From NCBI GenBank assembly GCA_964631855.1, contig CAZWAM010000004.1:3508-61276 (forward strand): 57,769 nt of DNA, written 5' to 3'. A program made the translations under genes and the position numbers. The DNA comes from an uncultured bacterium. GTDB taxonomy: Bacteria; RBG-13-66-14; B26-G2; WVWN01. Below, one piece after another: positions 10,364 through 44,727 of the stretch. Below the pieces are notes generated by a model that searched no databases, was not told where the DNA came from, and saw nothing but the letters and a program-made list of their open reading frames with translations. Numbering within the stretch: the stretch's first letter is position 1; every line of letters starts with the position of its first letter.

Positions 10364-10381
10364 AGAGCCGCAGGCGATGAT

Positions 10382-14808: not shown

Positions 14809-15727
14809 CGCCCCGAGCCCCCGCGCCGGCCGGCTCGACCGCCGCTACGGCCATCAGGCGGCCGGCCGCCTTGCCGTCCCGCCGCGCCGAAATAAAAAGC
14901 TCGGCCTCGCAAGAAGTGCACGTCGCGACGCGATAAATATTTTCGGGAAGCACGCCCGCCTCTTGCGCCGCGAGCTCGTTCGCACGGTGCAGCTCGAGCC
15001 GGCGAACGCCCCCCTCTTCAATTAAAACCTGGCCCGCTTTCTTGCCGAAGGCGGCCGCCACCGCCCGGGCGACGTCGTCGCCAACGTCGTAACAACACGG
15101 CCCAACGCCGGGCCCGAGAAAGACGACGACCTCCTCCGGGCGAACTTGCCAATAGGCCTCGAGGCGGGACACTCCCGCCGCGGCTATTTTCCCAAGGGTT
15201 CCCCGCCACCCGGCGTGCAAAAGCGCGAGCGCCCGCGCGCGCGCCGCCCACAATACGATGGGAACGCAGTCCGCCGTGAACACCGCGAGCGGCGCGTCGA
15301 CGAGGTCCGTCGCGAGGCCGTCGCACGCGCCGAGCCACCGCCGCTCCGCGACGGCAACGCGGCATATCGCCGTGCCGTGTACCTGGCGACAGCTCGAGAG
15401 GCGGCCGTACGGAAAGCCGACCGTCGCGCAAAGGCGCGCGACGTATTCCTCGTTTATGCGGCCGTCTTCGTCCAAAACCGGGCCCTCGAACCCGGCCGCG
15501 GGGCCTTCCTCAAGCGTCTTCTTAGTCGCGAAGGCCGCGGCAACACCCTCGAAGGCCGCTACCTTGTCGAGCCACAGCGCGCCTCCCGGCCCGAGCAGCT
15601 CAGCCGGCGCGTATTCGTTTTCGACGTTCACCGAAATCTCCTCACGCCCGGTAGATACGGCGTTCGGCCGTCGAGAAGAAACCAAGCCACCTCGGGTCTT
15701 TGGCGGCCTCCGCGGCCATATCGGCAA
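14798..15727 (-). CDS. pgeF: YfiH/PgeF family (peptidoglycan editing factor / laccase-domain protein)
   Basis: ...CRQVHG...TADCVPIVL...LHAGWRG...GPCCYDVG...TCTSC...FISARRDG... is the DUF152 pattern. The N-terminal 30-40 aa of the ORF are probably not translated. Overlaps the mrdA start by 11 nt. Confidence 0.8.
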   Translation of the reverse strand: MPIWPRRPPKTRGGLVSSRRPNAVSTGREEISVNVENEYAPAELLGPGGALWLDKVAAFEGVAAAFATKKTLEEGPAAGFEGPVLDEDGRINEEYVARLCATVGFPYGRLSSCRQVHGTAICRVAVAERRWLGACDGLATDLVDAPLAVFTADCVPIVLWAARARALALLHAGWRGTLGKIAAAGVSRLEAYWQVRPEEVVVFLGPGVGPCCYDVGDDVARAVAAAFGKKAGQVLIEEGGVRRLELHRANELAAQEAGVLPENIYRVATCTSCEAELFISARRDGKAAGRLMAVAAVEPAGAGARGDGA

Positions 15728-16253
15728 CGTTCGCCACTTTTTTATTCTAACATAAATTGCCGGTTAAAATTAACCGACCGAAAAGCTCGCCTTAGCGCGT
15801 ACATTTATAACCCCATTTTAAATAAAAAACGCCCCTCGCGCCCGCGTCTACGGCCCGGGCGCGAGCCGCGCGCTCGGCGACAAATGGGCGCTGGCGTTCG
15901 GGCCCCGCGTTACCTTCCTTTTCGACAACCCGGTAGAGAGTTACCAAATCCACGCTATACCGTTACAGGCCGATTATCGAAGGGCCGGTCGCGGCACCAT
16001 CCTCGTCGACCTAATGATAGGGTTTAATTACTACCTATAAACGCTACCGTTCTACTAATCGTTGGCAGCCCGCGAGGGCCGCTTTTTATTGCAAACGCCT
16101 TTTCGGACCCGCCGGCGGCCGCGACATTTAACTAAGCTCGTTTGACGCAGTAAAATTAACCCCACCAATAATAAAAACCACAAGGCGGTTTAAGGCGAAC
16201 AACGTGCAACAACGGACGCGGCCCCGTTACAAATAATCGTACAGACAAAATAA

Positions 16254-27774: not shown

Positions 27775-29808
27775 CTATCTCGCGACGGCCAACCGGCGCG
27801 CCGCGGAACCCGCCGACGAGGCGAAACAGCAGACGTAAACGCCCGGCGGCAGCGGCCGGCCCGCGCCGTCGGCAACCGACCACGTTATAACGTTCTCCCC
27901 CGCGCGAGCGCCGCGCGCCACCGTCGCTATGCGCCGGCCGGCGAGGTCGAAAACCGCGAGCTCCGCCCCGGGGTCGTCCGAGGGGAGCGAGAACGCGAAA
28001 GTTACGCTCCCGGACGCCGGGTTCGGCCTCGGTTGGGCAAAAGCAAACGGCGCGGCCTTTACGCCCGCCCGGGCCTCCGCCGGGCCAAAGGTACGGCTCG
28101 CGCCGGCGCGCGGTACGTACTCCAGCCAATAGCGGTAAGTGATACCGCCCTCGACGTCCCGGTCGAAGAAGCGGAAGGGCGGCCGGCCGCTGACCGGCGC
28201 CCGGTTTATTCTCGCGAGGCTTTTACCCGGGCGTCCGCGGTAGACGTTAAAAACGCCGGCCAACCCGCCCTCGCCCGGAGCCCACGACAGAAGGATACCC
28301 TCCGCGCGGCCCGCGGCTCGGAAATATCTCAGCTCGACGGGCGTCAGTAACTTCATAGCGGCCTCGTAAACGTCGAGCCGGCCGGCGCCGTAGTCGTTAT
28401 CCTTGCCGGGAGGGCCCAGGTCCAACGCGGTGATTTGCATTATCTCCGATAAATCCTCGGGGGTGAGGTTCTCGTCGACGTCCAAAAGCAGCGCGGCGCA
28501 ACCTGCGGCGTGGGGCGACGCCATCGACGTCCCGGACATATCCCTATACCCCGAATTGTCGTTGTGCCGACAGGATTTAATCTGGTACCCGGGAGCCGCG
28601 ACATCCGGCTTCAGAAGGCCCATCTTGGCGCCGTTCTCGTAAGGGTAGTCGCGCCACGGGTCGATGGTCTCCCAACTGCTCGGGCCCATGCTTGAGAAAT
28701 AGGCATACACGTCGTCCTGCGTCGTCGCGCCGACGGCCATCATCGACGCCAGGCCGCCCTTCAACTTCTGGTCGGGGTGGAGCCACGGCGGCGGACAATT
28801 GCCGGGAGCCGAGACGTTCCAGGGCAGGGGGTCCGTCGTATTGACCGAACTGCGGTAGTTCCCCGCCGATTTAAACTGGATGAAGCCGGCGCTGAGCTGT
28901 ATCTCGGAGGCGTAACGCCACGTCGCGTAGTCCGGGTTGGTATAAACGCGCCAGCCGAATGAGAGCGTTCCCAGGTCCGCGCCCTGACCGACGGCCCACT
29001 GCCAGGCTTCCCACACCGTGGACTCGACGCCGCTTATTTTACAAATCATAATCGTGGCATCGGGCGCGACGCCGGCTTGAGTACCGGCCGTGCCGTCGGA
29101 GGCCACGATGCCGCACACGTGGGTGCCGTGGCCGTTGTAATCCATGGTCTCTTCGTTATTGTCGGCGAAGTTCCAACCGTGCTTCGGGAAATTCGGGCCG
29201 CCCTCCCACATGTGGTCCCGGAGGTCGAGGTGGTTGTAATTGCACCCCGTATCGAAGACCGCAACCGTAACCCCCTCGCCCCGGTAGTCCATCGTCCAGA
29301 CGTCGGGGGCGCGGACTTTGGCGACGCCCCAAGCTATCTCGTCGCGGGAAGCGTCCGCCGCCGCGGCCTCGAATTCCAGGACCTGGTCGAGCGGGATCTC
29401 CTCATCCCAGTCGACGCTGCGGACGTCGCGCCGCGCGGCGAGGCGGCGGGCGATATCGGCGTCCACCCAGGCGTTTATAGCGTTCACGAGCCACATCACG
29501 CGCACGTCGCGCGCGCGGGCCGCCCGCTCGGCTTCCGCGAGTAAATCCAAAACGCCCCCTTGCGTATCACGCGCGAATCGCCGGAGCTCGTCCACGACGA
29601 CCGCCCGACGTTCCCCGCGCGAAAGGCCCCGCGCAATCGAAGCCATAACCTCCGGGTCGTATCGTTCCCTCATCATTATGTTGACCCGTACCAGCTCGCC
29701 CGACTCGAGGGTTTGGAGGCGAGCGGCGAGCTGAGGCGTCATACCGTCGAAGCCGCGCGCGGGTACGACGGCCGCGAGGGCGATAATTACAATTAAAATA
29801 GTCCTCAT
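27775..29808 (-). CDS. Secreted S8 (subtilisin-like) serine peptidase with Por/T9SS-type C-terminal sorting domain
   Basis: Catalytic triad contexts VFDTGCNYNH (Asp), HGTHVCGIV (His) and SGTSMASPHAAG (Ser). Start preferred at ATG 29808 (MRTILIVIIALAAV; GGAGG 5 nt upstream). C-terminus: ...PNPASGSVTFAFSLP...LAVFDLAGRRIATV...GVYVCCF...RRLAVAR. Confidence 0.9.
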   Translation of the reverse strand: MRTILIVIIALAAVVPARGFDGMTPQLAARLQTLESGELVRVNIMMRERYDPEVMASIARGLSRGERRAVVVDELRRFARDTQGGVLDLLAEAERAARARDVRVMWLVNAINAWVDADIARRLAARRDVRSVDWDEEIPLDQVLEFEAAAADASRDEIAWGVAKVRAPDVWTMDYRGEGVTVAVFDTGCNYNHLDLRDHMWEGGPNFPKHGWNFADNNEETMDYNGHGTHVCGIVASDGTAGTQAGVAPDATIMICKISGVESTVWEAWQWAVGQGADLGTLSFGWRVYTNPDYATWRYASEIQLSAGFIQFKSAGNYRSSVNTTDPLPWNVSAPGNCPPPWLHPDQKLKGGLASMMAVGATTQDDVYAYFSSMGPSSWETIDPWRDYPYENGAKMGLLKPDVAAPGYQIKSCRHNDNSGYRDMSGTSMASPHAAGCAALLLDVDENLTPEDLSEIMQITALDLGPPGKDNDYGAGRLDVYEAAMKLLTPVELRYFRAAGRAEGILLSWAPGEGGLAGVFNVYRGRPGKSLARINRAPVSGRPPFRFFDRDVEGGITYRYWLEYVPRAGASRTFGPAEARAGVKAAPFAFAQPRPNPASGSVTFAFSLPSDDPGAELAVFDLAGRRIATVARGARAGENVITWSVADGAGRPLPPGVYVCCFASSAGSAARRLAVAR

Positions 29809-29865
29809 AACGGCCTCCAAAAAACGCCGGCCCCGTTGGCATACCGGCGATTCATACCCCAAACG

Positions 29866-30025: not shown

Positions 30026-32191
30026 CTACCGACCGATTATAACCAGCTTCCCGACCTCGAGCTGGTCATTCCCCATAACGCGATATATGTAAAGCCCCGG
30101 CACCAAAGGCCTCCCGTCGTGACCGGGCCGCCATATGAAATTCTCGCGGCCGGGCGCCACGTCGCTGCGGGCAACCTTCCGCCCGGCGACGTCGAAAACG
30201 GTCACGGTTGCGGGCGACGAAATGCCGTCGAAAGTTATGCCGGCGCCCGAGGCATAATTATAAGGGTTGGGAAATACGCGGAAAGGCCGGCGGGGCCGCG
30301 GTTCCTCCCTCGCCGCGACCGCGGGGTCTCGTACGCCGATGTACTCCGAGCGCGCGAGATGGCCTACGGTCGCGGCGGCGGTTTTGCCCACGCGCGTCGC
30401 GAGGGGTATGGTTAGCTTGTCTAAAGTATCGTCCGGCGTATGATAATAAGGGTAAACTAAGTCGGGTTTGGAGCCCGGGCCGCCCTCGAAAAGGCCTACC
30501 GCCTCGTATTTTGCTTCCCAAAAAGAGCAGTGGTCCCCCTGGCCGCCGTAGATTTCGTAGTCGAACATCAGCTCGAGCCCGTATAGCTTGCCGACCGCGG
30601 CGACGTAGTCGCCGAGCCATATGGAAGCGCCGTCCACTCTGATTATCGCGTCGTCGCGCGAGCCCCGGTCCTCGTCATACGCGACCATATCGAGAACGAC
30701 GGCCGCGACTATCTTCTCGTCCTTAACCGAACATTCCTCCACGTACGCGCGGCTGCCGCCGTAGCTCTGCTCGGCGCCGCCGAAGAGTACGAAACGCAGC
30801 GTCCGGCCGACGCCGAGGTTGCCGAAGGCCGTCGCGGCGGCGAGAACGCAGCTCACCCCCGAGGCGTTCGCGTCCGCGCCTGGCGCGCCGTCGGCCGGCC
30901 GGGAGGAGGTGGAATCGTAGTGAGCCCCGAGCAGGATAATTTCGTCGTCCGCGACCGAGCCGCGACGCTCCGCCACGACGTTCTCCCAGAACATGTCCAA
31001 CCGAAGGTTGATCTTTTCGAAACTTACGCCGCCGTCACGAGTCAAATAGATCTCCCGGCCGAAGAGGTCGGTTAAGAGGCCGTGCTCGGCGTCGCCGAAG
31101 GCCCCGTCGCCCCAAAATACCTCCGGCGCGCTCGGTACAAGCGACCACGTCCGGCCGCCGTCTTCCGTCTTGTAAATTACGCCTTTGCCCGCGGTGAACC
31201 CGGTGGCCGCGTCCGGAAAAGAGACCGTCGTTAAAACGGCCGCGGAACCCGTTTCCACGTACGACCAATTTTCGCCGCCGTCTTTCGTGTACAGGAGTCT
31301 CGGGCCCCCGTACGCGGCCCACGCGACGTCGCCGTCAATAGCGACGAACGACCTGACGTCCGCCGGGGGAACGGGAAAGCCTTGCACCGTCCAACGCGTG
31401 CCGCCGTCTTCGGTCCGATAGATAACGCCGTCGTCGTACCAACTCGGCACCGCCCAACCCCTCCCGGCGTCGCCGAAAGCGATTGTATGGGGACAACCGA
31501 AATTGGGCAACGACTGCGCCGCCCAACTCCCCCCGCCGTCGTCGGTATAGTATATTCGCGGCGAAGACTCGTGGGAACAAGCGGCCCAACCCACGTCGCG
31601 GTCGACGAAAAATACGGACCTGAGGATATCGGCCGCGCCCTCGTCGACGCGAAGGTTTTGCCACGTTCGCCCGCCGTCCTCCGTTTTGGCCACGGTGCTC
31701 TCCGCCGACGCCGCGTACCCCACGGCGGCGTCGACGAAATGAGCGTCGTAAAGGCGCCCCGGCGCGAACGGGAATTGGCGCTGCCAGGAAGCGCCGCCGT
31801 CCGCGGAATTGTAAAACGTACTCCCGGCGGTAAAGACCCAGGCCGTTTTGTCCGCGTCCCCCCAATAGCTCCGCTTAAGGCATACGCCCCTGAACTCGTG
31901 CAAACGCGTCGAGTAGCCGAGGCCCGCGAGGATTTGCCGGGCGTAATCGCGCGCTTCCTCGCTTCCGGGCATATAGGAATACCGGCTTTTGAGATCTTGT
32001 AAGTATTGGATGTGGCCCGCGACAAGCTCGTCCGTAATGCCGTCCAAAGCCGCGGCGATAGCCGAGTCGCGGCCCGAGGGCGGCGGCTCGTCGCAGAAAG
32101 CCGGCGGCAAAGGGCCAATTAAAAAGTATAAAAAAGCCGTGGCCTTTACATATTCAATCTTTAAAACTCCGCGCATAAGCCCTCGCCACAT
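30026..32191 (-). CDS. M28-like protein, paralog 1 (short form): split M28 fold with a nested 7-blade Asp-box propeller and a sorting C-terminal domain (CTD); catalytic residues substituted
   Basis: 721 aa. Seven SxDxGxxW-type boxes: SADGGASWQ, TEDGGRTWQ, TDDGGGSWA, TEDGGTRWT, TKDGGENWS, TEDGGRTWS, TRDGGVSF. M28 blocks: GAHYDS, APGADANASG, FGGAEQSYGGS, VLDMV, YYHTPDD. CTD: VFPNPYNYASGAGITFDG...VFDVAGRKV...GLYIYRV...GKLVIIGR. Confidence 0.85.
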   Translation of the reverse strand: MWRGLMRGVLKIEYVKATAFLYFLIGPLPPAFCDEPPPSGRDSAIAAALDGITDELVAGHIQYLQDLKSRYSYMPGSEEARDYARQILAGLGYSTRLHEFRGVCLKRSYWGDADKTAWVFTAGSTFYNSADGGASWQRQFPFAPGRLYDAHFVDAAVGYAASAESTVAKTEDGGRTWQNLRVDEGAADILRSVFFVDRDVGWAACSHESSPRIYYTDDGGGSWAAQSLPNFGCPHTIAFGDAGRGWAVPSWYDDGVIYRTEDGGTRWTVQGFPVPPADVRSFVAIDGDVAWAAYGGPRLLYTKDGGENWSYVETGSAAVLTTVSFPDAATGFTAGKGVIYKTEDGGRTWSLVPSAPEVFWGDGAFGDAEHGLLTDLFGREIYLTRDGGVSFEKINLRLDMFWENVVAERRGSVADDEIILLGAHYDSTSSRPADGAPGADANASGVSCVLAAATAFGNLGVGRTLRFVLFGGAEQSYGGSRAYVEECSVKDEKIVAAVVLDMVAYDEDRGSRDDAIIRVDGASIWLGDYVAAVGKLYGLELMFDYEIYGGQGDHCSFWEAKYEAVGLFEGGPGSKPDLVYPYYHTPDDTLDKLTIPLATRVGKTAAATVGHLARSEYIGVRDPAVAAREEPRPRRPFRVFPNPYNYASGAGITFDGISSPATVTVFDVAGRKVARSDVAPGRENFIWRPGHDGRPLVPGLYIYRVMGNDQLEVGKLVIIGR

Positions 32192-32399: not shown

Positions 32400-34901
32400 T
32401 TATTTCGAGACGACGATTTTCCCCGCCTCTCTCTGCTCGCGCCCCTCGACGCGGTAGAGGTAGACGCCGGGTGCGAGCGAATCGCCGTTAGCGCCGGCAG
32501 GCCGCCATACGCACTCGTCGCTGGGCGCGGCCACCTCCTCGCGGCCTACGCGCCGGCCGGCGAGGTCGTATACCTCAACCGTCGCCGGCGATTTAATGCC
32601 GACGAAGTTGACGCCGCCCGCGGACGTCGCGTAGCAATACGGGTTCGGGTAAACGGCAAACGGTCGGACGAAGGGGACCGCGGCCGTCCCCGGCGGCGCA
32701 GGTTCGAAGAAGTACGGCCCCACGCCGGCGAGGTGCGCCAGCGTCGCGGCGTAATCGCGGACGAAGCGCACGCCGAGCTCGGGATGGAGCTTGTCGAGGG
32801 TATCTTCGGTGGTGTGGATATACGGATATTCTTCGCCGCCGCCCACGCCCTTTTCCCCCTCGATAACGCCCATCGCGGCGTAACCGACATCTTCGAACGG
32901 CCCATGGTCGCCGACGCTGCTCGCCTCGTAGTCGTATATAAGGGCATTACCGTACAACCGGCCGACGCGTTTCAGGTATTCGTACAACCACCACGATTTT
33001 CGAGTCTCGGCCGTGAAGTCGTCGCGTGCCCCGCCCTCCTCGTCGTAACAAACCATATCGGCGTTGAGGACCGCGACTACCTTCTCCCCTTTTTGGGCGC
33101 AATAATTCGCGTAGGCTTTACTACCTATCACGCCTTGCTCTTCGGCGCCGAAAGCCACGTAGCGAACGGTCCTTTTAAAGGACATATTCCGAAAAGCCCT
33201 CGCCGCAGCCATCGCGCACGCCGTCCCGGAGGCGTTATCGTCGGCCCCCGGGCAATCCGAAGGGTAACGGGGCCCCGCGAATGAATCGAAATGGCCGCCG
33301 ATGAGTACGATTTCTTCCAGACGTTCGCAGCCCCGCCTCTCGCCGACGACGTTTTCGGAGGCCAACCCTATCCTCCCAACGACGTCGCGGAAACTCTTAC
33401 CGCCGTCCCCCGTTACGAATAATTCGGATTCGGCCGTGGCGCCCAAAAGGCCGTGCGCCGCGCCGGCGAAAGATAAAATATCGCAGAAACCCTCGCCGGG
33501 CTTACGTAACAAACGCCACGTCTTGCCGCCGTCGGAGGTCGCGACCAGCCGGTCGCCCGCGGCGAAGCCGTGGGTACGGTCCGGGAACTCGATTTGCGAC
33601 AAGTGCCCCTCGTGCCCCGGGTTGACGTAATACCAGTCCGTACCGTTCTTCGTGCGGATCAGTCTCGAGTCGCCGACTGCCGCCCACGCCTCGGCCTCCG
33701 AAACGGGCGCTATGTCGTATATCCGGAACGCAGGCTTCGAGCACAACCGCCAACTACTGCCGCCGTCGCGGGAATAGTAAACGAGGTAATGGTCCGTAAC
33801 CCAAAGGCAATTCTCGTCGTACGCGCGGATCATGCGCACCGCGAAATCTTCGGCGACGTGCTGGGGGGCCCACGTCTTGCCCCCGTCAGAGGTCTTATGG
33901 AGAATTAGCTCGTACCGCCGCCGCGGTACACCCTTTCCCCCGCCGAACCACCCTACGTTTGCCGAGGCGAAAAATAAGTCGTTGATTACGAACCGGGCGC
34001 CCGGTTCCGACGGCGCAATTTTATAAGTCTTCCAAGTATAGCCGCCGTCCGAGGTCTTGCCGATCGTTTTAGCATAATCGTCGCGGTAAATAAAACCGAC
34101 CCGCTCGTTCACCCAAAACGAGTTATCGAGCCAATCCGTCCGCGCACCGTAAAAAGAATCCCACGAGGTACCGCCGTCCCGCGTCCTTTTGAAAACGCCT
34201 ACGTCCGTGTCGACGTATATAACGCCGTTCTTGTCCGCGAAGTGGGCGTTTTTAATCCCGGCACAATCGAAAGGGAAAAAGGAAGTTTCTAGATTTTGGA
34301 GGGCGAAGAAGTTACGGATATAATCGCGGGCCGCGTCGCAACCGGCGGTCTCTACCGCCCGGGTTTTAAAATCTTGTAATTGTTTAATATACGAGGCGTA
34401 CTCTTCCGCCGTTATCGTGTTAATAGCTCCTTCGATCGCCGGGTCCTTCTTCGTAGGCGGCGCCTCGCCGTCGTAGCGCCAGTCGACCGGCGTCACCGGC
34501 TCAAGCTTTATCAGCTCGATTCTATGCTCGACGGCGCGGAGCGCTCCCGGGCCCAAGCCCCGCTCGAGCCCTACGAGGATTTCATATTCCGAGAGCCGTA
34601 CCGCGGCGCCCAGGTGCTCGAAATGCTCGGGCGTGATTTTTACCCACGCCGGCGCCCAGACGATATAGTAATCCTTCGTTTGCGCTTCCCGGTCGAGGAG
34701 GCGGTACGGCGCCACGCGGCCTAACGCCGCGCTCGAGCCGTTGTACAAATACCCTCCCGCCGCCTGCCCGAGATAATAAAGCCCCGCCGCCTCGTCGGGC
34801 CGGACTTCCTTTTCGGAAATTACGACGAGGTCGCCGGGCAGCGCGTACGCCGCCGCGGCGAAAATAAAACCCACGACGGCCGCAACTATCGTCTTCCTCA
34901 T
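32400..34901 (-). CDS. M28 peptidase, paralog 2: N-terminal domain + split M28 + nested 7-blade propeller + sorting CTD
   Basis: Start preferred at ATG 34901 (MRKTIVAAVVGFIFAAAAYA; GGAGG 8 nt upstream). Blocks: GGHFDS, CPGADDNASG, FGAEEQGVIGS, LNADMV, YIHTTEDT. Asp-boxes include TRDGGTSWD, TSDGGYTWK, TSDGGKTWA, SRDGGSSWR, TSDGGKTWR. Confidence 0.85.
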   Translation of the reverse strand: MRKTIVAAVVGFIFAAAAYALPGDLVVISEKEVRPDEAAGLYYLGQAAGGYLYNGSSAALGRVAPYRLLDREAQTKDYYIVWAPAWVKITPEHFEHLGAAVRLSEYEILVGLERGLGPGALRAVEHRIELIKLEPVTPVDWRYDGEAPPTKKDPAIEGAINTITAEEYASYIKQLQDFKTRAVETAGCDAARDYIRNFFALQNLETSFFPFDCAGIKNAHFADKNGVIYVDTDVGVFKRTRDGGTSWDSFYGARTDWLDNSFWVNERVGFIYRDDYAKTIGKTSDGGYTWKTYKIAPSEPGARFVINDLFFASANVGWFGGGKGVPRRRYELILHKTSDGGKTWAPQHVAEDFAVRMIRAYDENCLWVTDHYLVYYSRDGGSSWRLCSKPAFRIYDIAPVSEAEAWAAVGDSRLIRTKNGTDWYYVNPGHEGHLSQIEFPDRTHGFAAGDRLVATSDGGKTWRLLRKPGEGFCDILSFAGAAHGLLGATAESELFVTGDGGKSFRDVVGRIGLASENVVGERRGCERLEEIVLIGGHFDSFAGPRYPSDCPGADDNASGTACAMAAARAFRNMSFKRTVRYVAFGAEEQGVIGSKAYANYCAQKGEKVVAVLNADMVCYDEEGGARDDFTAETRKSWWLYEYLKRVGRLYGNALIYDYEASSVGDHGPFEDVGYAAMGVIEGEKGVGGGEEYPYIHTTEDTLDKLHPELGVRFVRDYAATLAHLAGVGPYFFEPAPPGTAAVPFVRPFAVYPNPYCYATSAGGVNFVGIKSPATVEVYDLAGRRVGREEVAAPSDECVWRPAGANGDSLAPGVYLYRVEGREQREAGKIVVSK

Positions 34902-34958: not shown

Positions 34959-34996
34959 AAAAAAATGCCCGCCCGCGCAACCCGGGCTTTTTTTTT
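34959..34996 (-). terminator. Bidirectional-looking terminator between paralogs 3 and 2
   Basis: An A7 run, a GC hairpin (gcccg...cgggc within tgcccgcccgcgcaacccgggc), then a T9 run. On the minus strand the hairpin is followed by ATTTTTTT. Confidence 0.45.
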
Positions 34997-35025: not shown

Positions 35026-37569
35026 CTACTTCACGACGACGATTTTCCCGGCTTGCTTCTGCTCTCGCCCCTCGACGCCGTAGAGGTAGACGCCCGGCGC
35101 GAGCGCGCCGCCGTCGTCCCCGGCAGGCCGCCACACGCACTCGTCGCGACCCACGGCCACCTCCTCGCGGCCTACGCGCCGCCCCGCAAGGTCGTATATC
35201 TCCACCGTCGCGGGTGACTTAAGGCCGACGAAGTTCACGCCTCCCGCGGATGTCGCGTAGCAATACGGATTCGGATAAACGGCGAAGGTCCGGGCGTAGG
35301 GAACGGCCTCGCCCCCGGGCGGCGGCGGCTCGGTAAAGGTCCCGGCCACGCCCGCCAGGTGGGCCAGCGTCGCGGCGAGGTCCCGGGCGCAGCGCGCGCC
35401 GAACGCCGGCTGGAGCTTGTCGAGCGTATCCTCGGGCGTGTGGTACCAGGGATATTCTATACCGCCGCCCTCGCCGACCTCGCCTTCGATGACGCCCAGC
35501 GCCGCGTAACCAACTTTAGTGAACGACCAGTCGTCGCTGACCCAATCGTCGTCCCAATCGTATATAAGCTCCTGGCCGTAGAGGCTACCTACGGCCTGTA
35601 AGTAACCCACCAACCAGGATGCCTCTTTAGGCGCGCCAACCGTCAGGTCGTCGCGGGAGCCGTTCTCTTCGTCGTAACTCACCATATCGGCGTTGAGGAC
35701 CGCCACGATCTTTTCGCCCTTTTCGGCGCACTCCCGGGCGTAGGCCTCGCTGCCGAGGAGGTACGCCTCCTCGTCGCCGAATCCCATAAACCGCACGGTC
35801 CGTTTGAAGCTGACGTTGCGGAAGGCGCGGGCGGCGCACATCGCGACCGCCGTCCCGGAGGCGTTGTCCTCCGCGCCGGGGCAGACCCAGGGCCGTTCGG
35901 TGGAAATGGAGTCGTGGTGGCCGCCCACGATAACGATCTCGTCCGGCCTCTCGGTCCCCTTACGCTCGGCGACGACGTTGTACTCCGGGGCGTTGAGACG
36001 GCCGGATATATCGGTCCAGCTCGAGCCGCCGTCGTCGGTCCGGTAGACGGCGTCGCCGTAGTAATCGCCGATGACGCCACGCGAGGCGTCGGCGAACGCC
36101 ATAACGACGCATTCGATCGCGGGCGCGGCCTTGACCCGCGCCCAGGTCCGGCCGCCGTCGTTCGTTTTAATCAGCGGGTCGCCGCCTATATAGCCCCGGG
36201 CCGTGGTCGGGAACTCCACCTGCCGGAAGTCGCCCCTGAAGCCGGTATCGACTTCTTTCCAGTTCACGCCGTCGGTGGTGTGGAGGACGCGGTTAAGGGT
36301 CGTTACGCCCCACGCATCCGCGGCCCCCACGGCCGCAACGTCGTATACGTATTCGCCGCGGCCTAACGGAACCGAACAGACCTGCCAATTATCACCGCCG
36401 TCTGCGGTGTAATAAAGCGGGGGGGCGTACACGGTATACACCACCGCCCATATATGACTCGAGGTATAACAAACCATACGGTTGAAGTAACGCATGGCAG
36501 GATGCATTAGCGGAATCCCGCGCCACGTTTGGCCGCCATTTTCCGTTTTTACCAGCCGGTCAGTTCCGATATAACCACCGCCCGCGGCCTTCCAATCCGC
36601 ATAGCTTATCCAGCCGACGCGCGGCGTCGCGAACGCTATGCCGTAGATGGAACGGAAAGCCACCGGCAGGGCCGGCGCGTATCGCACGTATTGACAGGAA
36701 TCGCCGCCGTCCTCGGTTATCGCGACGTAACCGTCGATGCCCGCGACGAAACCCGCGTCGCCGTCGAGCCACCAACACGACGGCGGGTTATAATAATTCC
36801 CGGCGGCCCCCTTGGCGGGGCGGAGGGTGTCCCAGCTCGCGCCGCGGTCCCGGGAGCGCCGGACCATGCAGTGGTAATCGTCTAGGTAGATATTGCCGCC
36901 CGCCTCCGGATAATGGGCGACCTCGTAGCGGCCGCACGCGAACGCGTGCCAATCAGCGTCCAGGTTTTGCCCGGCGAACCAGTTGCGGAGCCAGTTGCGC
37001 GCCCCCTCCATGTTCGGCGTAAAGGAATAGCGCGTCCCGTAACTCTGAAGCTTGCCGATGTACCCCGCGTATTCTTCCGCCGTGATGGTTTTGATGGCCG
37101 CGTCCACCGTGGCGTCTTTCTTGGTGGGCGGCGCCTCGGCCACCCCCTTCCAGGCCGCGCGCGTCGTAGGCCGCAGCTCGCGGACGCGCAGGCGCGGCTC
37201 CATAGCCAACAGGATGCCGATATCGCCGGGGGCCGCGACCGCAACCACGTAGTCGTCGCCGAGCCGTTGGACGTCGCCTACCGTCGCCATATCCGCCGCC
37301 GTCAGCGCCGTTCGCCTGGGCGGCGAGACGAGGAAGTAATGCTTGCCGCGGGCGCCCTCGTCCAACACCCGGTACGGCGCCACGCGCCCGAGCGCGGCGC
37401 TCGAGCCGTTATACAAATACCCCGCCGCGCACAAGCCCAAATAATAAAGCCCCGCGCCTTCGTCGGGCCGGACCTCTTTATCGGAAATCACGACGAGGTC
37501 GCCAGGCAACGCGTACGCCGCCGCGGCTGCGAGAGCGGCCCCGACGACTATAATATTTATTATCTTCAC
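35026..37569 (-). CDS. M28 peptidase, paralog 3: same architecture
   Basis: 847 aa, GTG start (VKIINIIVVGAALAAAAAYA). Blocks: GGHHDS, CPGAEDNASG, FGDEEAYLLGS, LNADMV, WYHTPEDT. Seven Asp-box-like repeats. CTD: VYPNPYCYATSAGGVNFVGLKSPATVEIYDLAGRRV. Confidence 0.85.
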   Translation of the reverse strand: MKIINIIVVGAALAAAAAYALPGDLVVISDKEVRPDEGAGLYYLGLCAAGYLYNGSSAALGRVAPYRVLDEGARGKHYFLVSPPRRTALTAADMATVGDVQRLGDDYVVAVAAPGDIGILLAMEPRLRVRELRPTTRAAWKGVAEAPPTKKDATVDAAIKTITAEEYAGYIGKLQSYGTRYSFTPNMEGARNWLRNWFAGQNLDADWHAFACGRYEVAHYPEAGGNIYLDDYHCMVRRSRDRGASWDTLRPAKGAAGNYYNPPSCWWLDGDAGFVAGIDGYVAITEDGGDSCQYVRYAPALPVAFRSIYGIAFATPRVGWISYADWKAAGGGYIGTDRLVKTENGGQTWRGIPLMHPAMRYFNRMVCYTSSHIWAVVYTVYAPPLYYTADGGDNWQVCSVPLGRGEYVYDVAAVGAADAWGVTTLNRVLHTTDGVNWKEVDTGFRGDFRQVEFPTTARGYIGGDPLIKTNDGGRTWARVKAAPAIECVVMAFADASRGVIGDYYGDAVYRTDDGGSSWTDISGRLNAPEYNVVAERKGTERPDEIVIVGGHHDSISTERPWVCPGAEDNASGTAVAMCAARAFRNVSFKRTVRFMGFGDEEAYLLGSEAYARECAEKGEKIVAVLNADMVSYDEENGSRDDLTVGAPKEASWLVGYLQAVGSLYGQELIYDWDDDWVSDDWSFTKVGYAALGVIEGEVGEGGGIEYPWYHTPEDTLDKLQPAFGARCARDLAATLAHLAGVAGTFTEPPPPGGEAVPYARTFAVYPNPYCYATSAGGVNFVGLKSPATVEIYDLAGRRVGREEVAVGRDECVWRPAGDDGGALAPGVYLYGVEGREQKQAGKIVVVK

Positions 37570-37670
37570 GTCTGCACTTCCCCTACTCGCCGGCGTTACC
37601 TGGCGATGACTATCTTGCCCGCCTTCTTCTGCTCCCGCCCGACGACGCGGTAGAGGTAGACGCCGGGGGC
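37510..37670. repeat. 161-bp perfect direct repeat, copy 1 (junction of paralogs 4 and 3)
   Basis: Base-for-base identical to 40071-40231 at an offset of 2561 bp; mismatches at 37509/40070 and 37671/40232 bound it. It covers the last ~25 codons of one gene, the 26-nt spacer with SD sequence, and the first ~20 codons (signal peptide) of the next gene. Confidence 0.9.
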
Positions 37671-40130
37671 AAGCGTTTCACCCTCCCGAGTAGCGGGCCG
37701 CCACACGCACTCGTCGCAGCCGTCGGCTACTTGCTCTCGAGCAACGCGCCGGCCTGCCAGATCGTATATCTCCACCATCGCTGGCGACTTCAGGCCGACG
37801 AAGTTGACGCCTCCCGCGGATGCCGAATAACAATACGGGTTCGGGTAAACGGCGAAGGGTCGGGAGAACGGGACCGCGGCGTACCCCGGCGGCGCAGGTT
37901 CGAAGAAGTACGGGCCCAAGCCGGCTAAGTGCGCCAACGTCGCCGCCAGGTCGCGGCAAAGGCGGACGCCCAGGGCCGGGTGGAGTTTATCCAACGTATC
38001 CTCGGCGGTATGATAGTACGGATAGTCGATAACGCGACCTTCGCCCTTACCTCCTTCGATGACGCCGAGCGCCGGATAACCGGCATCCCAGAACCGGGCG
38101 TGGTCGGCCCACCACTCCTCCGAATCGTAAATTAAGTCGTTACCGTACAGGCGGCCCACGCCCACTAAATAATCGTAAAGCCACTTGTACGTATCCTCTT
38201 TATGGGCCACGGCAAAATCGTCACGCGCGCCGCGGTCCTCGTCGTATGATACCATGTCGGCGTTTAATACCGCGACGACCTTCTCGCCGCGCCGCGCGCA
38301 TTCTTCCGCATAATATTTACTTCCGATACAACCGTATTCCTCGGCGCCGAAGGCAACGTAACGCACGGTCCTTTTAAAAGACATATTCCGAAACGCCCGC
38401 GCCGCGGCCATCGCGCAAGCCGTCCCGGAGGCGTTATCCTCGGCGCCGGGAGCCACCCACGGCCTTTCGTCCGAATAGGAGTCGTAGTGGCCGCCGACGA
38501 TGACGATCTCCTCAGGGACCTCACAACCTAAGCGCTCCCCTATCACGTTGTCCGCGGACAAGTTCAAGTCTTGTGATATATCCACGAACGTTTTGCAACC
38601 GTCGTCGGTCCGGTATTGATGTTGGCCTTTCTCATCTCCCACTACGCCATGCAAACGGTCCGCAAACGCGAGAAGGTCGCATTCCATCTCGGGCGCGCCC
38701 GCTACTTCGCGCCACGTCTTGCCGCCGTCGTCGGTGGCTATTAAGGTTGAACCCGCGGCGTATCCGTGCTCGGCGTCTGGGAATTCGACGTTGTAAAACC
38801 ATCCCGAGACGCCGGGGTTAACGTACTGCCAATTGAGGCCGTCGATGGTATGCAAGAGCATATTCGAACGGTCCGCGGCCCAAGCCTCGCGCTCGCCAAC
38901 CGCGGCGAGGTCGATGTAATATACCATCCCCCCTATAGGGTCGGCGCAAGGCCGCCACGTCGCACCGCCGTTGTCGGTGTAAATAAAACACGGTTTGAAA
39001 TTAGTATAGCAGTTCGCCGCCCAACCGCATTTCCCGTCAAAGAAGCTGATACTACCGGCCCGGAAGTGCTCGGGAAGATTTTGTTCCTTCCATGTCCGCC
39101 CGCCGTCCGTAGTTTTCAAAATATAAGCACCGTAGTAGAAACCCTGGGGCGTTACGTAAGGCGGGTACGCAACAACGCCGAGCCAGCCGACATATTCCGA
39201 CATGAAATGGCACGAATAAGGGTAATAGCTCCACGTGCGGCGTTCCTGGCCGAAGTCCACCGTATCCCACGTGTCGCCGCCGTCGCGCGTCTTCGCAAGC
39301 TTCTTGTTCGAGCCGGGGGCAAAGCCCGTAAGGCTGTCTAACCAGTAACCTTCCCCGTAGGCATTTACGCCACGGGGCCAGACCGCATCCCACGTACCAC
39401 CGCCGTCGCGCGAACGCCGTATTAGGCCGTGCCGGGTATCGAGGTATATATTGCCGCCGGCCTTAGGATAATGAGCGGCCGCGAATTCGGTGCACGGGAA
39501 CGGGAATAACGTCGTCTCGAGGTTTTGCGTCGCGAAGAAGTTCCGGAGGTAATCGCGCGCGCCTTCGCAACCGCGCGTCAACGTATATCGCGTCCAGTAA
39601 TCCTGCAATCGTTTTATATAACCGGCGTACTCTTCTTCGGTAATTGTGTTTATAGCCCCTTCTATAGCCGGATCCTTCTTCGTCGGCGGCGCCTCGCCGT
39701 CGTAGCGCCACTCCACCGGCGTCACGGGCTCGAGCTTTATCAGCTCAACTCTGTGGTCGACGGCCCGGAGCGCGCCCGGGCCCAGGCCCCGCTCGAGCCC
39801 TACCAGTATTTCATATTCCGAGAGCCGAACTGCCGTACCCAAATGCACAAAGTCCGCGGCCGTAACCTTCACCCATTCCGGCGCCCAGACGATATAGTAA
39901 TCTTTGGCCTCCGCGTCGCGGTCCAGGAGGCGGTACGGCGCCACGCGGCCTAACGCGGCACTCGAGCCATTGTACAAATACCCCGCCCCGCACGAGCCCA
40001 AATAATAAAGCGCCGCCGCCTCGTCGGGCCGGACTTCCTTAGCAGAAATCACGACGAGGTCGCCGGGTAGCGCGTACGCCGCCGCGGCTGCGAGAGCGGC
40101 CCCGACGACTATAATATTTATTATCTTCAC
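37596..40130 (-). CDS. M28 peptidase, paralog 4: same architecture
   Basis: The ORF track extends to 40262, but that extension reads through the CTD of paralog 5 in another frame. The GTG at 40130 gives the same VKIINIIVVGAALAAAAAYA signal peptide as paralog 3. Blocks: GGHYDS, APGAEDNASG, FGAEEYGCIGS. Confidence 0.85.
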   Translation of the reverse strand: MKIINIIVVGAALAAAAAYALPGDLVVISAKEVRPDEAAALYYLGSCGAGYLYNGSSAALGRVAPYRLLDRDAEAKDYYIVWAPEWVKVTAADFVHLGTAVRLSEYEILVGLERGLGPGALRAVDHRVELIKLEPVTPVEWRYDGEAPPTKKDPAIEGAINTITEEEYAGYIKRLQDYWTRYTLTRGCEGARDYLRNFFATQNLETTLFPFPCTEFAAAHYPKAGGNIYLDTRHGLIRRSRDGGGTWDAVWPRGVNAYGEGYWLDSLTGFAPGSNKKLAKTRDGGDTWDTVDFGQERRTWSYYPYSCHFMSEYVGWLGVVAYPPYVTPQGFYYGAYILKTTDGGRTWKEQNLPEHFRAGSISFFDGKCGWAANCYTNFKPCFIYTDNGGATWRPCADPIGGMVYYIDLAAVGEREAWAADRSNMLLHTIDGLNWQYVNPGVSGWFYNVEFPDAEHGYAAGSTLIATDDGGKTWREVAGAPEMECDLLAFADRLHGVVGDEKGQHQYRTDDGCKTFVDISQDLNLSADNVIGERLGCEVPEEIVIVGGHYDSYSDERPWVAPGAEDNASGTACAMAAARAFRNMSFKRTVRYVAFGAEEYGCIGSKYYAEECARRGEKVVAVLNADMVSYDEDRGARDDFAVAHKEDTYKWLYDYLVGVGRLYGNDLIYDSEEWWADHARFWDAGYPALGVIEGGKGEGRVIDYPYYHTAEDTLDKLHPALGVRLCRDLAATLAHLAGLGPYFFEPAPPGYAAVPFSRPFAVYPNPYCYSASAGGVNFVGLKSPAMVEIYDLAGRRVAREQVADGCDECVWRPATREGETLAPGVYLYRVVGREQKKAGKIVIAR

Positions 40131-40231
40131 GTCTGCACTTCCCCTACTCGCCGGCGTTACCTGGCGATGACTATCTTGCCCGCCTTCTTCTGCTCCCGCC
40201 CGACGACGCGGTAGAGGTAGACGCCGGGGGC
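40071..40231. repeat. 161-bp perfect direct repeat, copy 2 (junction of paralogs 5 and 4)
   Basis: Identical to 37510-37670. Confidence 0.9.
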
Positions 40232-42652
40232 CGCGGCCCGCGCTGCAGGCCGCCACACGCACTCGTCGCTGGGCGCGGGCACCTCCTCCCGCGCCACGCG
40301 CCGGCCGGCAAGGTCGTATATCTCCACCGTCGCCGGCGACTTGACGCCGACGAAGTTCACGCCGCCCGCGGATGTCGCGTAGCAGTACGGGTTGGGGTAG
40401 ACGGCGAAGGGGCGGGCGAAGGGCACCGCCGCCACGCCTGGGCGCGGGTCCTCGACGCCGGTGTCGTCGAACGCGGCGAGATGCGCGAACATGGCGGCGT
40501 AGTCGCGGGCGAAGCGTACGCCCAGGGCGGGGCGGAGCTTATCGAGGGTGTCCTCGGTCGTGTGGTAATATGGGTATACCATACACCCGCCGGGCCCGAC
40601 GTTACCTTCGATTACGGCCAGAGCGGCGTAATTGAAAAGCCGAAAAGCCTCCTCGTCGCTACCGACGACGCCGACCTCGTAAATAACATTATTACCGTAT
40701 AGGCCACCGACGGCCTTCAAATAATCGAATAACCACTTGTCACGGCCGTAATCCACCGCGTAATCGTCGCGGTTACCGCCATCCTCGTCGTAACAAACCA
40801 TGTCGGCGTTGAGGACCGCGACGATATCGTGGCCCCGGTCCGCGCAGTACCGGGCGTAAAATTTACTGCCGACCAATCCGTCCTCTTCGGCCGCGAACGC
40901 AACGTACCGGACCGTCCTCGGAAAATCATTTCCTTTCAAAGCCCGGGCCGCGGCCAGGACGCAGGCGGTTCCCGAAGCGTTATCTTCGGCCCCGGGAGCG
41001 AGGGACGGAAGCATATCCGAGAGCGAATCGTAATGGCCGCAAATAATTACTATTTTATCCGGTTGGGAGCTGCCCCGCCGCTCGCCGACGACATTCTCGC
41101 CCGATATATCCACGTTATCGACAATATTGGTGAATGAGATACCGCCGTCGTCGGTCAGACACAGGTATTCCCCTAAGTGATCGCCCACGACGCCGTGGTT
41201 CCTATCGGCGAACGATAGCGCGAAACAAGCGCCGGTGGGCAACCCCGTAATCTCGCGCCACGTAGCCCCGCCGTCGGAAGTCGCGAAGAATTCAATCCCG
41301 GCGGCGTAGCCGTATTGACTATCAGGGAATTCTAAACGATATATCGGCCGGAAGGCGCCGACGTCTACCCGCGACCACGTCAACCCGTCGGTCGTATGTA
41401 GAATATTATTTTTGCCGGAGGTCGCCCACGCTTCGCGAGGGCCGACAGCTTCGATATCATTGACCGCTCCTACGCCACCCGGTAGGTTCCCTTCCTGCCA
41501 CGATTCCCCGCCGTTGGCAGTATAGAAAATCCGGCCGTCCGAACCGAAGTCCCAGGCCCAACCGTGATTGACGTCGTAGAAACCCATGGCGCCAATACGG
41601 GCCCCCCCCGGTGCGGGCCGAGGAGTCCAGGTCCGGCCTCCGTCCGTCGTCTTCGCCAGGAAGCCCGTGGGGATTTCGCTGTTCCTTTGGTAATCGCCGC
41701 CGAGCCATCCGATTTCGGGCGTCGTAAAACAAATACTAAACGCCTTGTATTTGTGTTCGGGATACCCGGAAGCGAACGTGATCGTCTCCCAGGTATCGCC
41801 GCCGTCGGTGGTTCTTGCGATTCGGTTGTTTTTCGCGCCGATGAACCCCGTATCGCGGTCATACCAAAAAACCGAAAGTATCCCGTCCGTACCTTCCGCA
41901 TAAACCGTGTCCCAAGTTAGGCCGTTGTCCTTGGACCTTTTAATGGTACTACGGTTCGTCCTAAGGTATATCCTAGCCGAAGCGGCGTCGTAATACGCTC
42001 CCCGGAAGCCCACGCAATCGAATTCGAACAACGACGTATCCAGCCCTTGCGCGGAGAAGAAGTCCCGGATGTAATCGCGTGCGGCGTCGCACCCCTTCGT
42101 GTCGGTACGCCGGGTTTTAAAACCCTGTAGCGTTCTAATATAACCGGCGTATCCCGCTTCCGTAATCGTATTGACCGCGGCCTCGATTACGGGGTCCTTT
42201 TCCGTCGGCGGCGCCTCGCCGTCGAACCGCCAATCCACGGGCGTTACGGGCTCGAGCTTGCGTAGTTCTATGCGATGCTCTACGGCCCGGAGGTCGCCCG
42301 GGCCCAGGCCCCGCTCGAGGCCGACCAGTATCTCGTATTCCGAGAGCCGCACCGCGGCGCCCAAGTGTTCGAAATCCTCGGCCTTAACCTTCACCCATTC
42401 CGGCGCCCAGACGATGTAGTAATCCTTGAGCTGGGCGTCACGGTCAAGGAGGCGGTACGGCGCCACGCGGCCTAACGCCGCACTCGAGCCGTTATATAAA
42501 TAACCGTCCCCCGCTTGCCCCAAATAGTACAACCCGGCCGCCTCGTCGGGCCGAACTTCTTTATCGGAAATTACGACGAGGTCGCCGGGTAACGCGTACG
42601 CCGCCGCGACAAAAGTTACGCTCGCGACGGCGGCATATAGTAACCTCTTCAC
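40157..42652 (-). CDS. M28 peptidase, paralog 5: same architecture
   Basis: Start preferred at GTG 42652 (VKRLLYAAVASVTFVAAAYA; GGGAG 7 nt upstream). The track start at 42673 lies 1 nt from the -10 box. Blocks: CGHYDS, APGAEDNASG, FAAEEDGLVGS, LNADMV, YYHTTEDT. Confidence 0.85.
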   Translation of the reverse strand: MKRLLYAAVASVTFVAAAYALPGDLVVISDKEVRPDEAAGLYYLGQAGDGYLYNGSSAALGRVAPYRLLDRDAQLKDYYIVWAPEWVKVKAEDFEHLGAAVRLSEYEILVGLERGLGPGDLRAVEHRIELRKLEPVTPVDWRFDGEAPPTEKDPVIEAAVNTITEAGYAGYIRTLQGFKTRRTDTKGCDAARDYIRDFFSAQGLDTSLFEFDCVGFRGAYYDAASARIYLRTNRSTIKRSKDNGLTWDTVYAEGTDGILSVFWYDRDTGFIGAKNNRIARTTDGGDTWETITFASGYPEHKYKAFSICFTTPEIGWLGGDYQRNSEIPTGFLAKTTDGGRTWTPRPAPGGARIGAMGFYDVNHGWAWDFGSDGRIFYTANGGESWQEGNLPGGVGAVNDIEAVGPREAWATSGKNNILHTTDGLTWSRVDVGAFRPIYRLEFPDSQYGYAAGIEFFATSDGGATWREITGLPTGACFALSFADRNHGVVGDHLGEYLCLTDDGGISFTNIVDNVDISGENVVGERRGSSQPDKIVIICGHYDSLSDMLPSLAPGAEDNASGTACVLAAARALKGNDFPRTVRYVAFAAEEDGLVGSKFYARYCADRGHDIVAVLNADMVCYDEDGGNRDDYAVDYGRDKWLFDYLKAVGGLYGNNVIYEVGVVGSDEEAFRLFNYAALAVIEGNVGPGGCMVYPYYHTTEDTLDKLRPALGVRFARDYAAMFAHLAAFDDTGVEDPRPGVAAVPFARPFAVYPNPYCYATSAGGVNFVGVKSPATVEIYDLAGRRVAREEVPAPSDECVWRPAARAAAPGVYLYRVVGREQKKAGKIVIAR

Positions 42653-42674: not shown

Positions 42675-42704
42675 ATTATATACCAACAAGTCGGGATAAG
42701 TCAA
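42675..42704 (-). promoter_or_regulatory. Sigma70-like promoter at the head of the M28 array
   Basis: Minus strand: TTGACT (42704-42699), 18-nt spacer, TATAAT (42680-42675). Confidence 0.5.
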
Positions 42705-42795: not shown

Positions 42796-44727
42796 TTATT
42801 TTTGGCTTTCCCCCTCGTCCTCAACGATTTCGTAGTCGGCGTCCACGACGTCGCCCTTGGGGCCGTCGCCGCCCGGGGGCGGCGGCTGCGCGCCCGTTCC
42901 GCCGGGAGGCGGCTGCGCCCCCGCGCCGGCCTGCTGGTAGAGCCGCGTGGACATCTCGTTCAGCGCGACCTCCAGGCCCTCGGTGGCCGAACGGATCTCG
43001 GCCGCGTCGCCCTTCTCGCGGGCGTCTTTGAGGCGCCGGATGGCCCCGTCTATCTTGTTCTTCTCTTCAGCGGTGACCTTGTCGCCAAGCTCCTTCAAAA
43101 GCTTCTCGGACTGGTAGACGGCGGAGTCGGCGCGGTTCTTGATCTCGGCCTCCTCGCGCATCTTCTTGTCCTCCGCCTCGTGGTCCTTGGCCTCCCCAAC
43201 CATCCCGTCGATCTCGTCGTCGGTGAGGCCGCTGGAGGCCGTGATGGTGATGCGCTGCTCCTTGCTGGTGGCCATGTCCTTCGCCGAGACGTTCAGGATG
43301 CCGTTGGCGTCGATGTCGAAGGTCACTTCGATTTGCGGGACGCCGCGGGGCGCGGGCGGTATACCCTCCAGGTGGAAGCGGCCTATGGTCCGGTTGTACG
43401 CGGCCATCTCGCGCTCGCCCTGCAGGACGTGGATTTCGACCGTCGTCTGGTTGTCGTCCGCGGTGGTGAAGATCTGGCTCTTGCGGGTGGGGATGGTGGT
43501 GTTGCGCTCGATGAGGCGGGTCGTAACGCCGCCCAAGGTCTCGATTCCCAGCGAGAGCGGCGTGACGTCGAGGAGCAGGACGTCCTTGACGTCGCCGGCG
43601 AGAATGGCGCCCTGAATCGCGGCGCCCAGGGCCACGACCTCGTCCGGGTTGACGGACCTGTTGGGTTCCTTGCCGAACAGCTGCCTGACTTTGTTCTGGA
43701 CCGCGGGCATACGCGTCTGGCCGCCGACCAGGATGACCTCGTCGACTTCGGCCGGCGCAAGGCCCGCGTCCTTGAGGGCCTGTTGGCACGGCCCGACGGT
43801 CCTCTCGACGAGGTCGGCTACCAGCTCTTCGAGCTTGGCCCGCGTGACCTGCTTCTCGAGGTGCTTGGGCCCGGTGGCGTCCGCGGTGACGTACATCAGG
43901 TTAATAGCGGTCTCTGTTAGGGTAGAGAGCTCGCATTTGGCTTTCTCCGCGGCCTCCTTGAGCCGCTGGAGCGCCATCTTGTCCTCGCGCAGGTCGATGC
44001 CCGTATCGTTCTTGAACTCGTCGGCGAGCCAGTTGATGACGCGTTCGTCGAAATCGTCGCCGCCCAGGTGCGTATCGCCGTTGGTCGCCAGCACCTGGAA
44101 GACGCCTTCCTCGCCGATCTCGAGGATCGAGATGTCGAAGGTCCCGCCGCCGAGGTCGAAGACCGCGACCTTCTCGTTGGCCTTCTTCTCGAGGCCGTAG
44201 GCAAGGGCCGCGGCGGTAGGTTCGTTGATGATGCGCTCGACCTCGAGGCCGGCGATCTTGCCCGCGTCCTTGGTGGCCTGGCGTTGGGAGTCGTTGAAAT
44301 AGGCCGGCACCGTCACCACGGCCTTATTGACGCGCTCGCCCAGGTAGTCTTCCGCGGTCTCGCGCATCTTCTGCAGGACCATGGCGCTTATCTCGGGCGG
44401 CGAATACTGTTTGTCGCCGATTTGGACGCGGCAATCGCCGTTGGCCGCCTCGACCACCTTGAAGGAAACCGTCTTGATCTCCGCGGGCACCTCCGCGTGC
44501 CGGCGCCCCATGAAGCGCTTTATAGAATAAACGGTATTCTCCGGGTTGGCTATCGCCTGCCGCTTGGCGACGGAACCGACGACCCTTTTGCCGTCTTTCA
44601 GGAATGCCACCACGGAAGGCGTCGTCCGCGACCCCTCGGCGTTGGGGATCACCACCGGCTCGCCACCCTCCATCACGGCCACGCACGAGTTGGTGGTCCC
44701 CAGGTCGATACCGATTATCTTAGGCAT
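42796..44727 (-). CDS. dnaK: Molecular chaperone DnaK (Hsp70)
   Basis: 643 aa. [22 protein letters not shown]..., DLGGGTFD, and a C-terminal acidic tail. Confidence 0.97.

Follow-up and report, generated by a model that had tools for sequence, protein, structure and literature searches.

The DNA analysed here (the window) is a 57,769-nt stretch of contig CAZWAM010000004.1 from an uncultured bacterium (GenBank assembly GCA_964631855.1). It holds a tandem array of five paralogous genes, A to E, which encode predicted members of peptidase family M28, and two successive junctions in this array, A/B and B/C, carry a 161-bp direct repeat. The origin of this repeat is the subject of the present analysis. 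The genes and the two repeat copies are listed in window coordinates, in the order in which the minus strand is read.

40157..42652, minus strand: paralog A, 831 aa, GTG start; PF04389 at 105 bits with BNR families, TIGR04183 at 29.5 bits (cut-off 23)
40071..40231, minus strand: repeat copy at the A/B junction, covering the end of A (24 codons and TAA), the 26-nt spacer and the first 20 codons of B; assigned below as the recipient
37596..40130, minus strand: paralog B, 844 aa, GTG start; architecture as in A; its signal peptide is the one that the conversion proposed below would have replaced
37510..37670, minus strand: repeat copy at the B/C junction, covering the end of B (24 codons and TAA), the 26-nt spacer and the first 20 codons of C; assigned below as the donor
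35026..37569, minus strand: paralog C, 847 aa, GTG start; architecture as in A
32400..34901, minus strand: paralog D, 833 aa, ATG start; architecture as in A
30026..32176, minus strand: paralog E, 716 aa, without the N-terminal domain

Paralog A consists of a signal peptide, an N-terminal domain, a BNR/Asp-box propeller, an M28 peptidase domain and a type A sorting domain of the type IX secretion system (T9SS). The assignment to family M28 follows from matches of all five paralogs to Peptidase_M28 (PF04389; 93–118 bits, cut-off 21.3) and to BNR/Sortilin propeller families. The sorting-domain model TIGR04183 (Por_Secre_tail), which covers the C-terminal ~80 aa, scores 24.4–30.8 bits (cut-off 23) for A, B, C and D and for A of the sister strain L046 described below, so that A to D are predicted T9SS type A cargo. 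The starts of A and B agree with public gene calls.

The repeat is exact, as the original prediction had stated: an exact-match comparison of window positions 37510–37670 and 40071–40231 gave 0 mismatches at an offset of 2561 bp, where the match cannot be extended beyond 161 bp by even one base. Its content is likewise as first described, namely the 3' end of one paralog, the spacer and the signal-peptide codons of the next. On the minus strand each copy comprises 75 nt that close one paralog (24 codons and TAA, ending ...PGVYLYRVVGREQKKAGKIVIAR before the stop), a 26-nt spacer with a weak Shine–Dalgarno sequence and 60 nt that open the next paralog (GTG and 19 codons, encoding the signal peptide VKIINIIVVGAALAAAAAYA). 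Only two perfect copies are present in the whole assembly G000 (2.49 Mb, 173 contigs), where the other matches are hits of 81–83% identity in two further paralog tails only. With 0 differences in 161 bases, the divergence between the copies is below 1.9% (95% bound). A match of this length is far beyond chance. When the columns of the aligned junction units were shuffled 5000 times the longest identical run was at most 33, against 161 observed; shuffling only the 561 locally conserved columns raised this to at most 57, and the probability of a 161-base run at the local flank identity is ~6e-23.

The rest of the genes is far more diverged. As whole genes, A to D have 58–65% nucleotide identity and 49–62% protein identity. 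In the codon alignment, identity is 75–95% in the opening few hundred bases and in the final ~250 and mostly 35–60% in between, and the number of synonymous differences per site is ~0.7 (saturated) in mid-gene, compared with 0.4–0.5 at both ends. The 150 and 250 nt adjoining the repeat are 75% and 72% identical, respectively. The flanks had been judged by eye to be ~80–90% identical; this figure is too high next to the repeat, for whole genes and above all in mid-gene, and the contrast between the repeat and the gene bodies is therefore much sharper than first judged. Other species possess distinct orthologues of A, of B and of C. Given the saturated synonymous sites and these orthologues, the paralog bodies are ancient.

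Converted and unconverted haplotypes in sister strains

Two public assemblies cover these junctions in near-identical strains. L046 (ENA ERZ23499107, ZHAO22-1_SAMN13740709_METAG-scaffold_119, 59,674 nt) was found by an exact-protein look-up of C, and L055 (ENA ERZ23499174, ZHAO22-1_SAMN13740703_METAG-scaffold_5586, 7,366 nt), which comes from another BioSample, was found by a cluster look-up. The strains of the window, L046 and L055 are ~99.9% identical. The record names suggest that L046 and L055 originate from subseafloor sediment of the Costa Rica Margin, since the BioSample numbers in these names fall within a range listed for such sediments under project PRJNA599172 (PMC9723726, where the range is given for amplicon data).

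L046 has the gene order A-B-C-D-E in single copy and lacks the repeat. Outside the A/B junction it differs from the window by 18 single-nucleotide polymorphisms (SNPs) over 17.6 kb, and its B/C junction is the same as that of the window. At its A/B junction, A ends in ...PAGSNGDSLAPGVYLYRVEGREQKKAGKIVIAK before the stop, the spacer is 114 nt long, and B has an ATG start and its own signal peptide, MKNMVVAAVAAGLCSAAAFS. Within the long spacer lie a hairpin that is rich in GC and is followed by a T-rich tail (-26.8 kcal/mol, z = -2.0), an AT-rich stretch that resembles a promoter (weakly scored in a scan) and a AAGGTAGG ribosome-binding site. Compared with the B/C junction, this spacer is without homology and the tail of A is only ~85–89% identical.

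L055, in contrast, has the A/B junction of the window base for base, odd edges included. It differs from the window by nine single-base changes and one indel. A single SNP falls in its B/C copy, at window position 37668, and the exact run shared there is 158 bp. Four SNPs are clustered within 25 nt of gene A (L055 444–468, equivalent to window 42311–42287). Micro-conversion was considered as their origin and rejected, as no single array paralog matches them; they may represent a small tract exchanged between strains.

The limits of the exchanged tract were read from a four-way alignment of the A/B junctions of the window and L046 with the B/C junctions of both assemblies, in which the sites scored were those where L046 A/B differs from B/C. 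To the left of 40247 the window has the L046 allele at 207 informative sites, from 40242 to 40059 it has the B/C sequence at 146, and to the right of 40044 it again has the L046 allele at 353 (560 outside the tract in all). A bounded tract is therefore donor-like while both flanks keep the recipient allele. The donor, B/C, is unchanged in both haplotypes, so that the exchange was non-reciprocal. The tract is the following feature.

40059..40244, minus strand: converted block with ragged edges, delimited by three-way informative sites; the edge sequence is unique in the genome

Its left boundary lies just past a 22-nt block, GCGACGAGTGCGTGTGGCGGCC, that is common to the sorting domains of A and B. 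The left edge itself (40244–40232 on the minus strand) is a novel 13-nt sequence, AGCGCGGGCCGCG, together with a 9-nt deletion, and it matches neither the donor nor the old allele. A search of genome G000 for a third donor of these 13 nt returned chance-level short matches only. Patchy heteroduplex repair, a slightly different donor and a separate mutation are all candidate explanations for them. The right edge is a mosaic, recipient-like at 40068, novel at 40065 and donor-like from 40063 to 40059: the exact block is followed by two codons (CTA CCC) that differ synonymously from both the donor and the old allele, then by seven donor-type bases and then by recipient sequence. L055 has the same two edges, and they are therefore genuine features of this haplotype.

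The direction of the exchange is given by the long spacer. It is absent from the whole G000 assembly, and five further species of the genus have homologues with 68–78% identity, each of them flanked by array genes on both sides; in G006 the homologue lies directly downstream of the A-type gene. A recent event cannot give rise to a sequence that is unique and of ancient conservation. The long spacer therefore represents the ancestral state, and the lineage of the window and L055 has lost it. The B/C junction is the donor and the A/B junction is the recipient.

Origin of the repeat and competing explanations

The original prediction had offered gene conversion or a very recent duplication. The comparison with L046, in which the junction is unconverted, and the identity of the ~185-nt block with B/C favour the former, and the age of the bodies speaks against the latter. 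We consider it very probable that the repeat is the footprint of a very recent, non-reciprocal gene conversion, either within one chromosome or between sister chromosomes. In such an event ~185 nt across B/C would have been copied over A/B, replacing ~275 nt of older sequence, and the copied block would have included the end of the sorting domain, the stop codon, the 26-nt spacer, the GTG start and the signal peptide. The donor, 2,561 bp away on the same strand, is unchanged. The identical 22-nt block in the sorting domain may have served as the upstream anchor and CTCGTCGTGATTTC, with the subsequent blocks in the conserved N-terminal domain, as the downstream anchor, and the exchange itself may have proceeded by recombination of the RecA or template-switch type after sister or same-molecule copies had become misaligned. 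Both recA and mutS are present in the genome. A second MutS-family gene (MutS_V, 105 bits, 834-aa frame) lies in the window at ~54414–54944 (G000:C4:57921–58451).

Several points weigh against this interpretation. The edges depart from the present donor, with the novel 13 nt and 9-nt deletion on the left and the three synonymous differences on the right (CTA CCC against TTG CCT). The anchoring blocks of identity, 22 and 14 nt, are short for RecA-type exchange. The support for two copies comes from assemblies, and the window metagenome-assembled genome (MAG) and L055 may share reads, so that they are independent at the level of assembly and consensus only. Finally, the terminator and promoter calls are based on patterns or folds, and a simple terminator scan did not list the hairpin in the 114-nt spacer.

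Of the alternatives, the one that fares best is import of an already converted A/B junction from another strain or a close species by homologous recombination after DNA uptake. The sequence at the tract edges, which the present donor leaves unexplained, would be accommodated by such an import, and the four clustered SNPs in A of L055 suggest that exchange between strains takes place. Even so, the core is identical at 161 of 161 positions to the B/C junction of the same chromosome, while the strains differ by ~0.1%; no other source of the junction sequence was found in the genus genomes or in Joint Genome Institute (JGI) metagenome contigs, where neither the window-specific left-edge sequence nor the core of the tight junction has a match; and the donor strain would itself require an earlier conversion. 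Import is therefore unlikely.

Less likely again is an assembly artefact, in which B/C was written into A/B by the assembler or by polishing, or in which similar junctions were collapsed. The source is a short-read MAG in 173 contigs and, if it belongs to the Costa Rica Margin project, the 2x150 reads are shorter than the repeat. A collapse is implausible given the lack of spacer homology and the limited tail identity of the L046 junction, and joining existing sequence cannot yield boundary sequence that is unique on both sides. A second assembly with SNPs of its own, L055, reproduces the converted junction exactly. Further, with R for the repeat, the assembly graph A-R-B-R-C can be traversed in one order only; a miscall could affect nothing but the number of passes through B, and L046, which lacks the repeat, contains a single B.

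Selection on a nucleic-acid element at the junctions, such as a regulatory RNA or a cassette recombination site, could in principle keep the copies identical, and tight junctions of the same type do occur in the sister species G009. This explanation is hardly tenable, however, as the foldable 150 nt of the repeat contain no excess RNA structure (z = +0.64), the element is missing at A/B in L046, the two junction copies of G009 differ at ~17 of 110 positions in the spacer itself, and an element of this kind does not account for identity at every synonymous site. A very recent tandem duplication of a gene-plus-junction unit, which the offset of 2561 bp (one gene unit) would suit, can be dismissed, since identity is not uniform over the unit but falls to 35–60% within a few hundred bases, the synonymous sites of the bodies are saturated (~0.7 per site), A, B and C have separate orthologues elsewhere, and L046 has the same genes without the repeat.

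The consequences of the exchange for the two genes and for the space between them can be read from the sequence. The last ~27 residues of A changed from AGSNGDSLAPGVYLYRVEGREQKKAGKIVIAK to AARAAAPGVYLYRVVGREQKKAGKIVIAR, a tail that is three residues shorter. B gave up an ATG start, a near-consensus ribosome-binding site and a signal peptide of its own and acquired the GTG start, weaker site and signal peptide of C. The 114-nt spacer, with its terminator-like hairpin and AT-rich promoter-like stretch, was deleted from A/B, and A, B and C, now 26 nt apart, form one tightly spaced unit behind the putative promoter of A (42704–42675), the only promoter-like site of this kind ahead of A, B and C after the conversion. 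A short conversion can thus cross a gene boundary and in one step exchange a sorting tail, a start codon and a signal peptide and remove a spacer with terminator- and promoter-like elements. The features around the array are as follows.

42796–44727: dnaK, upstream of the five-paralog array
42675..42704, minus strand: promoter-like site upstream of A, TTGACT-18-TATAAT, 11/12 (consensus match only)
27775–29862: S8 subtilase gene, which follows paralog E

The spacers from dnaK/A to E/S8 are, in order, 143, 26, 26, 124, 223 and 163 nt. The 124-nt C/D spacer contains a terminator-like hairpin at 34971–34987, and E has a promoter-like site of its own and a terminator upstream. The best match to the PorU model in the genome scores 241.7 and 130.1 bits in two stretches of one 1498-aa frame (cut-off 420 bits).

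Concerted evolution of the array across the genus

The related genomes are labelled Candidatus Coatesbacteria and, in one case, Zixiibacteriota. Arrays are present in all nine other genomes of the genus, and many of their contigs end inside the array. The comparison of related MAGs that had been proposed as a check shows that the number and order of the paralogs differ between species, which is consistent with the earlier view of the array as recombinationally active. Exact-match scanning of these arrays detected further repeats: a 272-bp exact repeat in the sorting domains of two adjacent genes of G002, exact repeats of 149 and 59 bp either side of two successive tight junctions of G009, and exact runs of 54–79 bp in G001, G005, G006 and G008.

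Trees were built from 25 full-length paralogs for three segments, the N-terminal domain, the body and the last 85 codons. The body tree groups strictly by orthologue type: it requires 18 genome-label changes, where shuffling gives 17.6 on average. The tree of the last 85 codons (the sorting domain) groups by genome, with 8 changes where the minimum is 7 and with none of 200 shuffles as low, and the tree of the N-terminal domain is intermediate (16 changes). In approximately unbiased (AU) tests the sorting-domain data reject the body-orthologue clades (p of 9e-6 and 2e-7) and the body data reject the genome clades (p of 2e-38 and 3e-4), p-values that are somewhat weakened because the groups were named after the trees had been seen. 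The same pattern is found at synonymous sites, where the nearest neighbour lies in the same genome for 18 of 24 sorting domains, 9 of 24 N-terminal domains and 3 of 24 bodies. In the sorting domain, then, paralogs are closer within a genome than to their orthologues, synonymous sites included.

The controls behave differently. Where paralogs are unlinked, and likewise in E, the sorting domains follow orthology across species and not the genome, which argues against selection for a genome-specific sorting signal; E, whose sorting domain is not homogenised with those of A to D, serves as an internal control. The statement in the original prediction that the junction was homogenised independently of the gene bodies therefore extends well beyond this locus. 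In every sampled species the sorting-domain ends are homogenised within the genome, the bodies continue to diverge as old orthologous lineages, and the N-terminal regions tend towards homogenisation less strongly. The A/B event is the latest case of a process that has long been under way in this Coatesbacteria-type genus.

Four further observations were made in individual arrays. In the closed genome G008, the sorting domains of two genes ~1.6 Mb apart (L018 7866–10403 and L025 4294–6867) are sisters with support of 99, so that homogenisation in G008 is not limited to adjacent genes. In G001 a two-gene unit occurs twice in tandem (L017 5556–15901), with 97–99% identity at the sorting-domain ends and 32–60% in parts of the body; in the body tree the genes at 8148–10697 and 13337–15901 are sisters, a sign of duplication within that lineage. 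G006 has a 110-bp exact direct repeat (L019 10514–10623 and 11454–11563, 940 bp apart) at and upstream of the start of the first array gene. In G009 an array member is split into two overlapping frames of 451 and 436 aa (L022 7961–10551) and could be a frameshifted pseudogene or an assembly error.

Array members of ~540–570 aa are found in four sister species (L017 3848–5479, L018 6240–7856, L019 1270–2895 and L022 3811–5523). They align to residues ~12–212 and ~527–844 of paralog B and consist of the N-terminal domain, the M28 domain and the sorting domain, without the propeller. The existence of these propeller-less members fits a propeller that is an insertion nested in the peptidase.

A more far-reaching idea is that the array is a cassette system in which the gene ends, with their sorting domain, junction, signal peptide and N-terminal domain, serve as built-in handles for recombination. 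We regard this as doubtful. The differences in gene order and copy number between species are compatible with it, but the incongruence between N-terminal regions and bodies that is seen in the tree (for example, the N-terminal region of A groups with a G007 gene of type B) does not reach significance (AU p of 0.17–0.28). Were it true, conversion at the junctions would keep the export signals and operon wiring uniform or rewire them, the propeller–peptidase bodies would be moved, duplicated or lost as whole in-frame units, and a slow-growing subsurface bacterium would gain heritable variation in its repertoire of secreted peptidases.

Comparison with known systems

Gene conversion among bacterial paralogs is well known and is usually inferred after the event. 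Here, converted and unconverted haplotypes occur in near-identical natural strains, and the donor, the recipient, the tract length and the edges can be read directly. The process itself is of a known kind; the novelty is modest for that reason, and the value of the locus lies in unusually clean before-and-after evidence and in the rewiring of a junction. For a Coatesbacteria-type lineage it means concerted evolution of the export signals in a tandem family of predicted secreted peptidases, alongside divergence of the bodies that face the substrate. There is also a practical side, in that such arrays break or confuse short-read assemblies, as the many contigs of relatives that end inside the array indicate.

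A recent tandem or segmental duplication would resemble the locus in giving a direct repeat spaced by one gene unit. It would differ in that the identity here is confined to 161 bp (~185 with the edges), and the units are otherwise anciently diverged.

A closer parallel is provided by the babA/babB and homA/homB genes of Helicobacter pylori, in which intragenomic gene conversion makes the 3' segment cluster by strain and the middle varies (PMC2795765, which cites Pride and Blaser 2002 for concerted evolution in H. pylori and Santoyo and Romero 2005 as a general review). Both systems have a divergent middle, a C-terminal segment that clusters by genome and non-reciprocal recombination. However, the H. 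pylori loci are dispersed and the present paralogs are adjacent tandem genes, and the tract described here crosses a gene boundary (stop codon, spacer, ribosome-binding site and the next signal peptide) and removes a terminator-like spacer. The H. pylori genes encode adhesins under immune pressure, whereas those of the array encode predicted secreted peptidases of a free-living sediment bacterium.

The second parallel is with rgpA, kgp and hagA of Porphyromonas gingivalis, which encode T9SS cargo with modules that are rearranged or exchanged by recombination (PMC5266723). Like the gingipains, the predicted products of the array genes are secreted proteases that begin with a Sec leader, end in a conserved T9SS C-terminal domain of ~80 aa and have modules in common with their paralogs, and in both cases recombination or gene conversion has been invoked as the source of variation; on the side of the array, the likeness in T9SS export is drawn from the sequence of the sorting domain. 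In P. gingivalis it is the adhesin modules that are exchanged, largely between strains, whereas here the sorting domain and the junction are homogenised within a tandem array.

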